Shown here piece by piece: positions 2,595 to 8,078 of a DNA stretch of 8,079 nucleotides. Each line of letters opens with the position of its first letter. The first letter of the stretch is position 1. Below the pieces are notes generated by a model. The model saw nothing but the letters and a program-made list of their open reading frames with translations, ran no database searches and was not told the DNA's origin. The position numbers were made by a program, and so were the translations under genes. This DNA comes from Paraphysomonas bandaiensis. Taxonomy: Eukaryota > Protista > Chrysophyceae. The stretch is taken from positions 1 to 8,079 of the forward strand of contig CBFFRP010000666.1 of the NCBI GenBank assembly GCA_965644295.1, written 5' to 3'.

Positions 2595-2854
2595 CTGTCT
2601 GCATCAGTGAATATAGTGACCTACGGAGCGGGTGCACCGTGGTATTTATATGTATGAATGATATATGCATGCTGTCTTTTCAATACGTACCCCATGTAAC
2701 TCTCCAGCTCGGCATCTGTCCTTGTTCTATCAGTGCGAGGGGCCACTCCACTGTTAGTTCATAGATATGTTTGCCTTGAGCGGGTGTACATGGTACACGG
2801 TGCACACCCAGCTCGGTTCTATTTCTTTGTTGCAGTACAGTAAGGGCCCACTTG
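2432..2854 (+). ncRNA. Candidate structured RNA/ssDNA array: long hairpins A (2432-2533), B (~2536-2641), A' (2692-2793) and partial B' (~2796-2854)
   Basis: A: ccatgta/tacatgg, gctc/gagc, ggca/tgcc, tctat/ataga, cagtg-gag/ctc-cactg, loop gggcca. B: cacggtgca/tgcaccgtg, gctc/gagc, ggt/acc, tgcag/ctgca, cagtaag/cttgctg, loop ggccca. The pairing is clear, but family and transcription are unknown. Confidence 0.35.
2691..2854. repeat. 164-bp direct repeat, copy 2; abuts the truncated RT
   Basis: Identical to 2431-2594; its right end coincides with the loss of RT similarity after ...CTFWDF. Confidence 0.97.
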
Positions 2855-5130
2855 GAAGTCCCAAAAGGTGCATATTTTCGCGTGTCCAGTGAGTTTGGCC
2901 AGTTCGGTGGCCGCTAGGACTCGGAGGATTGCAGTGTCTGTGCCATGTCTCCACCTGTAGCCATGTTGCGCCGGGTGTAGAACATCGTCGTCTTCCCAGA
3001 TTTGGAGGAGTCGGTGTGTGATGATGCGTGTCATCAATTTGCGGAGAACCTCTAGCAAACCGATCGGTCTCAGGTTTTTGAGGGACGTGTTTCCCGGTTT
3101 TTTGAGTAGAGGGGTCATGACTCTATCTCTCCACCAGTGTGGGATATGGCGGTGAGTCCAGAGCGTTTGTAGGAGGCCGAGTACTTCTATTTTTACCTGT
3201 GGTGTCCAGCTTTTAATCATGTTCGTGGTGACCATGGATGGTCCGGGTGCTTTGTCTTTGGCCATATTATCGAGGGTGGAGTGGAATTCGTTTATCGAGA
3301 TCTGTTGCCGGAGGGCTTCCCTTATTTTGACTGAGGTGGATGGGCCGACCTTCGTTTTGCATAGTTTTCGTAGCCCAAGGTGATGTTGGATCGGGATAGC
3401 GGAATTCGGGTGGAGAGGGTTGTTTAGGTTATCGCCGGCGGTTAGCTCTCGCCACCAGTTGTCGTCATGGTGTAATCTTTGGGCGGTGGAATCCATGCCT
3501 TTAGGGAAGGCGTGGTGTGCCGCGAAGTGCTTGTTCAAGGCTTCCTGTATCTCCGATGGAATGGTGATCGTGGCCCCGTCCTCCAGGGTGAGACGGGTGA
3601 GTGCTGGTGTCTGCTTCCGCTTTAGTCCGATGGATTGGAGGACCTGGCGTAGTTGTTGTGTTTCGAGTTGGGCTTGGAGGGCGTGTGTTCTGGTGGTCAT
3701 CCGTTTCCTCATTTCAGCGCGGGCTCTCCCTTGGAGCATTCGCATGAGGCTGTCGCGGAGGTTGTCGAAGGCATTGCCCGTGACATTCGTTGTGGTCCAT
3801 GTCAGCATTTGCCGTGGATATATCGCGGCTCGGATGATGGCAGTGGGTGGTCGGTCGTGGTCCTCTGGTGAGAGGTCGAGAGCAGCAGTGGTGCGCTCCC
3901 ATCTGCAGATTCCTCTCCGGATGATGCTGTAAAAGTATGAGTCGGTGACACGGGGGTGTAGGTGCCCGGATCTGGTAAAGAGTTTTCGTTTGAGGTATAT
4001 GGTCAGATGGAGTGTTGTTTGTAGGACTCTCATCTCGGCAGAGAAGCCATCCTTGAACCGGGAGCGTTTGCGTTGGCATTTCGCATGGATTCTGTTTTTC
4101 TTGGTTCTGTTCGCGTGACGGGTATCATGGGCCGCGTCTAATGTGATACGATGAAGGAGCGCCAGTTTTATGGCTGCATCTTCGGCGGGGTGAGGGTGTG
4201 TGGGGAGCGTGGACAGGGTGTCGTGGTGTTTGTGTAGGTGGGTCTGAAATTCTTCCACCATGTCGTGGTCAGCCGGGTTGATGTTGAGCCGTGGAGGAAT
4301 CTGACGGTGTCGTTCCTTGGGGAGGGTGGGACCTGTCCCGCTAATGTCGATCTGGAGCCATACCGGTCTGTGATCAAATGGCGCTGCAGTGATGGCGTCA
4401 GATGTGTGGCATCCGTTGCGTGTGTTATGAAAGTGTGTAGGAAGAGGTCTATGTAGGATGTGGTCTATTCTGGATACGCCACGGTCTTTCCAGTAAAAGG
4501 TGTGGTATGGTGCCTCCGGGTCAAGGGTTTGTATGAGTGGGGCTGTTAGCTGCAGGGATCTTGCGAATCCTCGGAGGTCCCGTTTTCCTGTTTGTCCCTC
4601 TAGAGTGGCATTGAAATCTCCTCCGACGAGTACGGTGTGATTGTTTGCTCTGGCTTTGGCGATCCATTTGGATATGATGTTTGTGAGGATGTCGTATGGT
4701 CCAGTGGCGCCGTTCCTGTGAGCGTTCTTGCCGAAGGCTTTTAGTGATGCCCATAGTGTGCAGGGTCCATCGGTCGCGGGCTTGGGGGGGAGGTACGCGC
4801 CTATGGTGGTGAATCTTTCTTCTCGGTAAGGTCGTCCGGTGTGAAATTCGATTCGGGAGATGAGCCCTAGTCCTGTGCAGTCGGTGCCTGTGCGGCGGAC
4901 TCTGCCTTTCCACGTTTCGCTGATCACTGCGATAGTTCCTCCCATGTGCGGATCGTTGGGGCCCTGTTTCCGCTTCGTGTTGAGGAATTTACAGACAAGA
5001 ACCCCTGGAAGCTGGTCCTGGATGTAGTCGGCGAGATACGTTGCCTGGTGTTGTGACAAGCGGACGTCGAGCAGGTATAAGCAGTCTATGTGGTGGGTGC
5101 GTATGTAGTGTAGGATAGCTTCGATTTTTT
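2819..5130 (-). pseudogene. APE endonuclease + linker + truncated RT segment of the retrotransposon polyprotein (the part of ORF 2819..5533 that is in the correct frame)
   Basis: From KIEAILHYIRTHHIDCLYLLDVRL onward the ORF carries EEP/APE and RT motifs. The last ~11 codons (QVGPYCTATKK) are read from the 164-bp repeat. Confidence 0.85.
2855..3310 (-). other. Non-LTR reverse transcriptase, N-terminal part only (motifs 0, 1, 2, 2a and start of 3)
   Basis: KDKAPGPS, IPHWWRDRVMTPLLKK, LRPIGLLEVLRKLMTRII, LHPAQHGYR, GTDTAI, CTFWDF. The expected following xAFD, the QG motif and the YxDD motif are absent. Confidence 0.95.
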
Positions 5131-5180
5131 CCAGGGTTGTTGGAGGGGTTACCGTTGACGTTCCATGTGGAGAATGTGAA
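4345..5180 (-). other. Apurinic-like endonuclease (APE/EEP) domain
   Basis: FTFSTWNVNG (5151-5180, alternative frame), IDCLYLLDVR, GGTIAVI, IGAYLPP, VLVGGDFNA, HTFYW...SRIDHIL, FDHRPV, all in canonical order. Confidence 0.92.
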
Positions 5181-5540
5181 GGTCGTGGTAGATGACAGGG
5201 GGCTGGAGTCCGGCTCTGGGGATTCGGGTGACGCATGTGCGTGTGGTTGCTTGGTGGCAATGAGATCGCGCCACTCTTGCGTGCAAAATTCAACGTCGTC
5301 AGCATATGCCTCTCTTGCTTGTAATAGGATCTCAAGCGGCCACTTGGGGTCTTGCCAATATCTGTACCCATAGTGTACAAGTAGTTCTTCGTGAGTTGCA
5401 ATGTTCCGTGTGGTTCTGATGTAGATTCTATCGTTTTTCGTGTGAAATTCGACATTAGCAGCCCTGGCCTGTAGTGGATCGTTGATGTAGCCCGCTGCGC
5501 ATAGTATGCGTTTGTTTCGTTTGTCCCTTGCATCTATCGC
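5131..5540 (-). pseudogene. Frameshifted coding segment not shown in the ORF track: SET C-terminal half + linker + APE motif I
   Basis: Stop-free manual translation from GCG at 5540: AIDARDKRNKRILCAAGYINDPLQARAANVEFHTKNDRIYIRTTRNIATHEELLVHYGYRYWQDPKWPLEILLQAREAYADDVEFCTQEWRDLIATKQPHAHASPESPEPDSSPLSSTTTFTFSTWNVNGNPSNNPG. Confidence 0.9.
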
Positions 5541-5720
5541 AAAAATGTACCTTTCGCGTCTTGAACAACGTAGTCGGAAATGTAATCAGCGGACCTGGCT
5601 TCTGCGATGGGTATTCGGTGTCCGGTGCACTCGGAAATAATGGCATGGGCAGGAATCGGCTCTCCAGCGTACAGGGCGTTCCCCTTGATATCGGTGTCCG
5701 CCCTGCCCATTAGGACCTTG
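5355..5720 (-). other. SET domain (protein-lysine methyltransferase fold), split by a frameshift at 5541-5545
   Basis: KGNALYAGEPIPAHAIISECTG (cf. GxGLFAxxxIxxGxxIxEYxG), SDYVV, AIDAR, AAGYINDP..ANVEF (cf. ARFINHSCxPN), IYIRTTRNIATHEELLVHYGYRYW (cf. xxxAxRDIxxGEELxxDYG..YW). Confidence 0.88.
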
Positions 5721-6286
5721 TGTCGAAGCGTTGGGTCCCAAGTGAGCGGGAGGGGTGGGTGAGCTGTTTGAAGTAATGTGTCGAAAGTAGCCTGTGGGCA
5801 GTATATGGCGTGGGTTTGGACTTCGTCGGAGATTTCTGCGTAGGAGTGCGTGGAACGGGCCGTTCGGGCAGGCTGCTTTCGCTTAGTGACGGGCATTAGG
5901 TTCCGTGCTTCCTGTCCTTTGGTTCGCTTTGCTCCAGGGGCGTTTCGGGATTGATGAATGTGTGGTGGCGTATCAGGTGAGGGGGTGCCCGCTGTCGCGC
6001 GCGTGCGGTGTTGAGAGTGGTTGGCGGGTGGCGTCGGTGGTGTGGAGACGTGGGAGCTCCTCCGGGGGGGAGTGGTCGTCTTGCATTTTGTTGGTGTCGA
6101 GGGCCAGGGTGTGGTGCTGTGGGTGGTGCTTTGCTGGGGTTGGATGGGAGGCAGGGGCGCCGGGGGGACAGTGTCCCTAATGCTGAGTTCTGTTGGTCGG
6201 GTGGGTCTGTGGAGTGGTGATTTTGGAAGTGCTGCTTCGAGGTCGAGGAGTGCATTGTCTAGCTCGGCTGCTAGCCCTCTAGGGTT

Positions 6287-6769
6287 AAGGTGATAGTAGT
6301 GGGCATCGTGTAGCACAATATGTGGTCGATCGTCGGTGATGGCATCTCTCAGTTCGTCAGATGTCCAGGCGGGGCTGTGGTGGCTGGGTGCGTTGGGGAT
6401 TCCGACGATTGTGATATTGTCACCGTCCGCAGTCCATGTGGTGACTGGGCCAATGTAGGAGGCTAGAATGTGTAGCTCGCGGACTGAGAGCCATTGTTGG
6501 ATGTCTTGTGGAGTGGTGTATGTGGGGGAATGTTTGACTGTTAGGGAGTGGATAGCATGCTCTGTTTTATTAAGTATGGTTGGAGTGCAGTGTGGGCTGT
6601 CTAGTGCTATGGTCCTAAGGTTGCCAAGCCAGTGGCCTAGATGTATTCGATGCTCTGGTTTCCGGAGGTCGAGGTTCCAGAGGTTAGCCGTGTGACGCAT
6701 TCCCATACAAAGCGTGTGCAGTCGGTATAGGGTTCCGTATGCACAGTACCCATTTGCGGGTATGTGGTA
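6287..6769 (-). other. OTU-like cysteine protease domain
   Basis: YHIPANGYCAYGTL (cf. xPxDGxCxY/F; Cys codon 6743-6745), WLSVRELHILA (cf. WGxxxELxxLA), HIVLHDAHYYHL (cf. HYxxL; His codon 6299-6301). Confidence 0.7.
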
Positions 6770-8078
6770 AGCTGCTTGAACGGACGCGGTAGTTACGTGT
6801 ACACGTAACACGCGCCCAGCTGTCTGTATAGCTGTACGTGAAGAGTTCTGGCTGCCCGGGTCGGCTAGGCGTGCAGTAATGGCTCGGGCACCGCGCTGTG
6901 TGGTGCTGAGGGTGAGGTGGCTTGCGGGTATCGTGATTGGGCGTTGGTGGGACTGATGGGGAGTGGTACTTCTCCCAAGGGTGTGGCTGGGGGGTCTTCT
7001 TCGCGTGGTGGAGAAAGTGAGAGAGGGCCGATTTGGCACTATGACGCGCAGCTACGAGTTTGGATCCGATGTCCGGTATTCGGAGAAGAAAGTAATGTTT
7101 GTTGATTGTAGCAACGTTGTGTGTGGTCTCAGTCATGGGATCGTGGGTTTGACGGCTGTGTAACATTACCCAGCCACTAGATAGGGAGCCTGGGGTTCCG
7201 TTCCATAGTCGGTAGTTGATACGAAGGAGCTGGAGCAATGTCTGGAAGTCGGTGATCTCCATGTGATGATCTGCAGAAAGTGCGCATCGCTTCGGCGGCA
7301 TGGTGGTTAGAACCTTGTGCGCGCCTTGGAGGATACTGAGCAGTCGGCTTGTGTGTGCCTGTCCGGATGCGAGGCAAAGTCGTTGTAAGTGGGTAATGAA
7401 TTTATGCAGTTCTTTTGCATCATTAGCATTTTGTAGGGGGGCTGTGGAGTAGTGCCCAGGCGAAGGAGCGGTATGGATTTGGTATGTGGTTGCAAGGGGG
7501 GCTAGGCCGCGTTCTATTGTGGCTCTGAAGTCAGCCTCCCAGTCGAAGTTGGCGACTTGAATGTAGTTTGCATCTTCATTTATGATTTGAAAAAGCTGTC
7601 TCCAGTCTGTTGTGCCTGCCATGACGGTGTTGTGTATGTATCGTAGCAGGTCTTCGCGTAGGGAGACTGCAACTCGATGTGTGTTGTCGTATGCGGTCCA
7701 GGCGTTAGTAAGGGGACTGGTGAACGGTAGGGCTCCCCGCCGGGCGGGCGGGGGTTGCGGTGTCGAGGGGGATGTTGACACACATGAGGTAGGCTGGTGT
7801 TGTGAAAGGGGAATGTCGGGCGTGTATTCGATCAGGGATTGAGCTGTAGACGGGAGAGTTGGTTGGTCCGTGGACGCGTCCCGAGCGGCATGCTTAGGTT
7901 GCGGGATGGGCGGAAAGTAGTCAGCAAGTGTCAGGCTGTGCCGGTGCCGCCTGGGGGGTTGCCTCGTGGTGCTTGGAGCGGGTGTAGCGGTGAGGGCATC
8001 GGGTTTGTGAGTGTGTCCTGGGATTGTGGGGGGTTTGCGTGGTCGGCGCTTGGGCGGGCCATCGCCGCTGTCGTCGCT
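6684..8078 (-). pseudogene. Upstream polyprotein segment, open at the window edge: Pro/basic disordered region, helical region, possible degenerate OTU-like domain
   Basis: The frame of ORF 6684..7781 (listed start is GTG) continues without a stop to 8078 (SDDSGDGPPKRRPRKPPTIPG...), so the true start is probably outside the window. Confidence 0.7.
6792..6809. repeat. Perfect 18-bp palindrome
   Basis: gttacgtgtacacgtaac equals its own reverse complement. Confidence 0.95.

Follow-up and report, generated by a model that had tools for sequence, protein, structure and literature searches.

A SET domain split over two reading frames in a decayed LINE retrotransposon whose intact relatives keep the domain under selection

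Does a stretch of DNA from the chrysophyte Paraphysomonas bandaiensis encode a SET domain that its open reading frames conceal, and what would such a domain do beside an endonuclease and a reverse transcriptase (RT)? The whole stretch analysed, 8,079 nt, is referred to here as the window. An earlier note, made from the letters alone, had claimed a cryptic SET domain lying across two frames. The domain is located on the minus strand at 5719-5355 and is split at an A5 run (5541-5545). Its N-terminal half belongs to the frame 7051-5534 (-), which terminates with QDAKGTFLR and a stop codon, and its C-terminal half sits in the frame 5585-4989 (-), which continues into the start of an APE endonuclease with a second break of 1 nt at 5125-5130. 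The C-half alone exceeded the curated cut-off of Pfam SET (PF00856; 26.6 vs 22.4 bits), and also that of PRDM2_PR (29.9 bits, cut-off 27); the N-half alone had no Pfam match at E≤1. Against a SET profile built from 148 of 150 listed homologues, with the query and two spurious matches excluded, the N-half scored 38.1 bits, the C-half 102.1 bits, and the two joined with X at the break 151.8 bits, the halves covering complementary profile positions (14-74 and 77-149). The best of 200 shuffles reached 4.3 bits and the best other among the 156 ORFs of the window 2.4 bits, so that the split domain is borne out by the joined score. The break does lie in the A5 run where the note had put it; the 1-nt slip and the extra Phe that it had read there do not stand, as the surplus is 2 nt and relatives read G-T-F-[A/V]-I-D at the break without an additional Phe.

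The right two-thirds of the window is occupied by one minus-strand element (Table 1), a single-ORF LINE (non-LTR) retrotransposon in a damaged state. The domain order of the element ORF is OTU-like, OTU-like, SET, APE and RT, and APE followed by RT in one ORF is the arrangement of APE-type non-LTR elements. The 5′ end of the element lies outside the window and its 3′ part is missing; an RNase H and a CCHC finger, known from relatives, were not found within the window, nor did the ORFs upstream of the SET N-half match Pfam. A search with the C-half returned a single match among 232 candidates, P0001 (1774 aa, 63% identical), which carries SET at 908-1012 (37.8 bits, model positions 1-105 of 105) and APE at 1079-1327 in one ORF. 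A compact SET domain that retains its catalytic Tyr and forms part of an element, as had been proposed, is thus supported.

Table 1. Parts of the minus-strand element and its breaks, in window coordinates
Feature	Position	Strand	Remarks
Polyprotein N-terminal low-complexity part and first OTU-like repeat	7002..8078; repeat ~7625-7050	(-)	ORF continues past the window edge
Third break: frame change and linker ~45 codons shorter than that of P0001	6952..7010	(-)	
Second OTU-like cysteine-protease domain (likely)	6236..6880	(-)	Cys 6745-6743, His 6301-6299; no Pfam match
SET N-half	5546..5719	(-)	Motif I Ala 5677-5675 replaces Gly; E-C-T-G Cys 5629-5627 replaces Tyr
Break 1: T5 run, 2 nt surplus vs higher-depth copies, then TAG 5536-5534	5534..5545	(-)	
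SET C-half	5355..5540	(-)	N-D motif 5483-5478, catalytic Tyr 5372-5370, Y-G-x-x-Y-W end
Two predicted post-SET helices	5240..5354	(-)	Segment matched in 33 of the 150 SET matches listed
Break 2: A6 run, 1 nt surplus vs relatives, within APE start	5125..5130	(-)	
Apurinic-like (APE) endonuclease	4330..5180	(-)	Pfam Exo_endo_phos E 8e-9
RT N-terminal part	2852..3300	(-)	Cut at 2852, upstream of the catalytic DD motif

SET, APE and RT occur together in an intact ORF in P0191 and P0195 (3114 and 3111 aa); in P0191 Pfam recognized these three, and local profiles together with visual inspection added OTU-like, RNase H-like and CCHC parts. L001, a DNA of the P0001 subfamily, is 72% identical to the window. 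Searching 1.84 billion representatives yielded 172 SET relatives, of which 150 were listed and most are short fragments. In thirteen of these 150, Pfam or local profiles recognized APE, OTU-like, Ulp1 or RT-downstream sequence; several of the local profiles had been seeded with those same proteins. Among the matches listed, ranks 1, 4, 6 and 18 are SETs from other non-LTR retrotransposons. Scanning metagenomes with P0004 yielded no locus. The window sequence had small shares in marine metagenomes, which we did not take as a sign of habitat, and no RNA data set was listed as containing it, a result without bearing on expression.

An RT search gave 10 matches, and in a 16-row RT tree 12 rows, including the window, L001, P0028, P0177 and P0178, formed one clade at 99/98. 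SET is placed in the order OTU-like/SET/APE in the window, P0001 and P0191, in the order SET/OTU-like/APE in P0177 and P0100, behind the CCHC finger with OTU and Ulp1 in P0028, and doubled ahead of Ulp1 in P0206, which falls into the same cluster as P0178. At least four arrangements of the SET, OTU and Ulp1 modules thus occur in the clade. P0206 and its companion P0208 (4935 and 4805 aa) are giant single-ORF LINEs reading APE-RT-RNase H-CCHC and then SET-SET-Ulp1; P0028 (3923 aa) reads APE-RT-RNase H-CCHC and then SET-OTU-Ulp1, with an extra N-terminal RNase H. A PD-(D/E)xK-like motif of a restriction-like endonuclease (RLE) was found in none of the 13 post-CCHC segments of relatives, a region missing from the window, and the combination typical of Dualen/RandI, APE plus an RLE after the CCHC finger, was likewise not seen in the relatives. 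The weakly supported sister of the clade, at 92/94 and on a long branch in the RT tree, is the APE-RT-RLE protein P0008, and similarity of the relatives to it ends before its catalytic RLE part. P0008 (3007 aa) consists of APE-like, RT, RNase H-like, CCHC and RLE-like parts behind a primase-polymerase-like N-terminus recognized by eye; no SET was found in it.

Whether the LINE-linked SETs go back to one acquisition was approached with two trees. A quick SET tree of 140 rows, with 11 short or spurious rows dropped, placed all 14 LINE-linked SETs on one half with a support of only 84. In a 46-row tree, whose 30 comparison rows were picked by hand, largely out of the first tree's far half, and make it lean to clustering, 15 of 16 LINE-linked SETs grouped at 88/65; three changes were needed, and a single change sufficed in 0% of bootstrap trees. 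On these sequences, a single origin is neither shown nor excluded. An LTR-type pol protein, P0151 (1195 aa; RT, RNase H and integrase), also has a SET/PR domain, after its integrase, and this domain falls outside the LINE-linked group in both trees.

As to hosts, the SET relatives P0026, P0046, P0049 and P0050 belong to Mallomonas annulata (EukProt). The source records of 21 proteins were consulted, and this species was the sole named eukaryote in them; P0046 has, in addition, a match to the clade's region downstream of the RT. Mallomonas annulata is an alga of the chrysophyte group and gives a weak hint of the host range. A second SET-LINE subfamily, L001-like and with 72% DNA identity, is present on long, deep contigs in the public runs X3, X5 and X9, and the two subfamilies likely share hosts. 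L001 itself (positions 3183-3698) has its own frameshift just downstream of SET. We rejected 'Nitrospiraceae bacterium' as its host: L001 is a LINE, 30-nt loose ends from X3, X5 and X9 match it by eye, and its occurrence in a bacterial MAG is likely contamination.

The intact SET of P0001 was modeled with a pLDDT of 89.5. Foldseek matched the model to SETD8 (E 8e-8), and VIA aligned 127 residues with a Z of 12.6 and an rmsd of 2.7; SET7/9 and PRDM domains tied with SETD8 (Z 12.3-12.6). The SET fold is thus present in the prediction, and the absence of Cys-rich pre-SET and post-SET clusters was noted correctly, two helices following SET in the model instead. No special likeness to viral or bacterial SETs emerged, as viral fold matches were no closer and only 9-26% identical. 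The PRDM2_PR score of P0001 was 26.2, near the cut-off, and the C2H2 family that accompanies the PR domain as an array in PRDM proteins was absent from P0001, P0004 and P0191.

Motif residues were compared across 16 LINE-linked SETs: all retain the catalytic Tyr and final Trp, and 15 retain the motif-III Asn. Where canonical SETs have G-x-G, E-Y-x-G and N-H, the window has Ala, Cys and Asp. N-H was found in none of the 16 (13 N-D, two N-E and one H-D), and N-D, present in 116 of the 150 SET matches listed, is the norm of the subfamily. PRDM9 is active without the N-H His. The second Gly of motif I is Ala in the lineage of the window, Ser in P0191 and Gly in the remaining 14, and the Tyr of E-Y-x-G is Cys in the window lineage and Tyr in the other 15. 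The earlier note had left it between family traits and decay; since GNA, ECTG and ND are common to the 72%-identical relative under purifying selection, they are lineage traits rather than decay. Profile position 135 aligns with EZH2 726, the catalytic Tyr, and the window Cys aligns by offset with EZH2 641. According to the passages of PMC3868588 cited here, Y641 of EZH2 restrains the substrate lysine, its loss favours trimethylation, and a Cys variant at this position alters specificity. By analogy with EZH2 Y641C, we infer that the lineage-specific Tyr-to-Cys change, together with a Val at the second position ahead of the catalytic Tyr, would bias the enzyme toward trimethylation. The Ala and Cys changes are compatible with an active trimethylase and equally with a weakened enzyme.

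Selection was estimated between the window and L001. Pairwise dN/dS was 0.12 for SET (127 codons, 74% identity), 0.10 for APE and 0.04 for RT, and the two OTU-like repeats gave 0.20 and 0.28; these ratios are rough because dS is near saturation (1.4-2.6). Among the majority variants at 5290-5760, 24 of 40 listed, out of a total of 53, were synonymous, where 24% was expected (p 2e-6). The SET is thus not evolving neutrally, and intact relatives keep it under selection comparable to that on the endonuclease.

The domain at 6880-6236, upstream of SET, is likely but not proven to be OTU-like. In an alignment of seven rows the His is conserved in all and the Cys in six; the Cys of the first OTU-like repeat is present in P0001 and lost in the window copy. 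The model of the domain is of moderate quality (pLDDT 61), and all four VIA matches with Z≥5 were OTU deubiquitinases, with Z of 5.1-6.0 against a tool threshold of 8, rmsd of 4.0-5.8 and 132-149 aligned residues. Atlas related it at 0.90 to clusters in which 19-35% of the members have OTU. The alignment had no match in PDB sequences or Pfam, and Foldseek found none under E 0.001.

We propose, with a probability of roughly 60%, that in intact copies the SET ahead of APE is an active lysine methyltransferase that marks host chromatin, the likeliest site being where the element itself has just inserted. That the domain binds SAM and is active appears probable; that its substrate is a histone or another chromatin component is somewhat favored; and action in cis at the insertion site is a tentative suggestion at just under even odds, made because SET would travel with APE-RT in the ribonucleoprotein. 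The intact polyprotein would carry the active SET to the nicked target together with APE and RT, where SET would methylate chromatin, and the new copy would avoid or exploit silencing. The OTU-like and Ulp1 modules may strip ubiquitin or SUMO, or process the polyprotein. A position next to APE is not obligatory, as SET follows the CCHC finger in P0028 and P0206.

Alternatively, SET could be active but freed by the element's proteases, and could then act in trans; the proposed targets are defence genes of the host or proteins other than histones, namely silencing factors or the polyprotein itself. Its co-occurrence with OTU and Ulp1 proteases in P0028, P0098, P0206 and Dualen-1_GCr and its varying position within the ORF fit such a role, but the first OTU-like repeat of the window copy is without its Cys, and we regard this possibility as unlikely. 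Marginally less probable still is that SET is weak or dead in this lineage and serves as a chromatin reader steering the endonuclease to marked nucleosomes, much as chromodomains steer some LTR elements to marked chromatin. The two lineage departures, which put Ala in place of a SAM-loop Gly and Cys in place of the Tyr that orients the lysine, would also fit a weak or dead enzyme and are fixed in the lineages of both the window and L001, SET abuts APE, and selection remains strong. However, the catalytic Tyr, the motif-III Asn and Y-G-x-x-Y-W are retained, and in P0191, the closest relative, the Tyr is unchanged and the Gly position holds Ser. Moreover, the EZH2-equivalent Tyr-to-Cys change shifts the methylation state (PMC3868588, in part) and is expected to be compatible with the lysine channel.

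Beyond the chromatin-marking enzyme that we favor, a broader picture is conceivable though doubtful as a whole: an undescribed LINE clade of chrysophyte-like protists, probably derived from Dualen by loss of the RLE, that carries a shuffled chromatin toolkit, with SET as writer and OTU and Ulp1 as erasers, and that would put a histone mark of its own on every new insertion, SET being turned into a dedicated trimethylase in this lineage by a natural counterpart of EZH2 Y641C.

Why the SET of the window is split was addressed by aligning contigs from four public runs (X1, X3, X5 and X9). An X3 contig (5398-5752) is identical to the window across the break at a depth of 104, and an X5 contig, from a different study and under a different species label, crosses the break without gaps. 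Deeper contigs (498 in X3 and 712 in X9, where contig depth does not equal copy number), about 90% identical to the window, lack 2 nt at 5541; this absence was found in contigs of two of the four runs and is not listed in X1 or X5. It is the surplus 2 nt that brings the TAG at 5536-5534 in frame. The 1 nt at 5125 is missing from contigs in all four runs, the third break (6952..7010) is spanned by an identical X3 contig, and at 2852 contigs of relatives continue where the RT of the window ends. This pattern fits one mutated copy amid several in-frame ones. The split is thus real DNA and the decay of this copy, neither regulation nor assembly error, since gap-free short-read contigs from two studies contain it, higher-depth copies are without the surplus nucleotides, and further breaks and the RT truncation accompany it. 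Consequently, the window copy cannot produce SET, APE or RT within one frame.

A programmed frameshift rationing SET, APE and RT, to which the break in a T run right ahead of a stop and the sum of 3 nt over two breaks might point, is highly improbable: the higher-depth copies and the intact P0001, P0003-P0006 and P0191 remain in a single frame, translation would have to shift again at 5125, the RT is truncated regardless, and the run does not read as a canonical X-XXY-YYZ slippery heptamer. Both breaks fall in homopolymer runs, but an assembly error there is hardly credible given that the break is present without gaps in contigs of two studies (X3 could be the source sample; X5 is separate), and the other way of emptying the SET of meaning, as a captured fragment hitch-hiking neutrally, fails equally on its dN/dS of 0.12.

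Other features of the window lie to the left of the element's coding parts. An exact 164-nt direct repeat (2431-2594 and 2691-2854, 260 nt apart) adjoins the end point of the RT; it has high contig depth and contains TG...CA (2435-2590), and may represent either a miniature LTR element or, after an internal deletion, the 3′ tail of the LINE itself. Two minus-strand open frames, 862-1986 (374 codons) and 308-832 (174 codons), had no Pfam match, and the former encodes a Cys-x2-Cys...Cys-x2-Cys stretch and a basic C-terminus.

A SET fused to an endonuclease and an RT offers a direct handle on the question of how new retrotransposon copies evade silencing. The domain comprises about 190 residues and folds confidently in prediction, and intact forms exist with (P0001) and without (P0191) the Tyr-to-Cys change. 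Although the frameshift is ordinary decay, it warns that ORF-based annotation overlooks such domains.

Compared with SETD8, SET7/9, PRDM PR domains and EZH2, the LINE-linked SET has the same fold (tied Z values of 12.0-12.6) with the catalytic Tyr in register, but it is 13-29% identical to them, has N-D rather than N-H, and is followed by a helical post-SET. The partner domains of these enzymes are not present here, and therefore the substrate cannot be read from them. Among transposable elements, a SET inside a LINE ORF is already in print: Dualen-1_GCr of the cryptophyte Geminigera cryophila has one 5287-aa ORF with SET, C48 peptidase, APE, RT, RNase H, CCHC and RLE (Lescot et al., PMC5029228). 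As far as that description goes, both are giant LINE ORFs joining SET, a cysteine peptidase, APE, RT, RNase H and CCHC. In contrast, Dualen has an RLE whereas the present clade has no RLE motif (13 of 13 relatives), the proteases beside SET are OTU-like here, and SET abuts APE in the window element. The precedent we found is thus a short passage on a cryptophyte Dualen, and the wider clade with at least four module orders is shown here. We found no description of an RLE-less LINE clade with SET and OTU-like modules in the literature searched outside Repbase. The precedent surfaced via Dualen rather than the wording 'SET domain'; therefore, further SET-LINE precedents may be worded differently or stand in Repbase Reports.

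Other known systems share parts of this design. NeSL and Utopia-1_TSP fuse an Ulp1 cysteine protease in a non-LTR single ORF (PMC4640811), but they are RLE-type, and SET is unmentioned in the part of that paper drawn on here. Helentrons and proto-Helentron-Pi are SET-bearing transposons, and Helentrons also carry OTU proteases and APE (PMC4067079, in part); HarbingerS and MuDR of Phytophthora carry SET (as cited in PMC12730594). Unlike the element described here, these are, in the accounts cited, DNA transposons in which SET and OTU each have an ORF of their own, not fused to RT. SymbioLINE-Dnmt is a LINE with a methyltransferase, whose DNMT domains are reported to be under purifying selection (de Mendoza et al., PMC5890265). 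According to that source in the part cited, its enzyme is a DNA cytosine methyltransferase in ORF1, whereas here a lysine-methyltransferase-type SET is carried in the APE-RT ORF.
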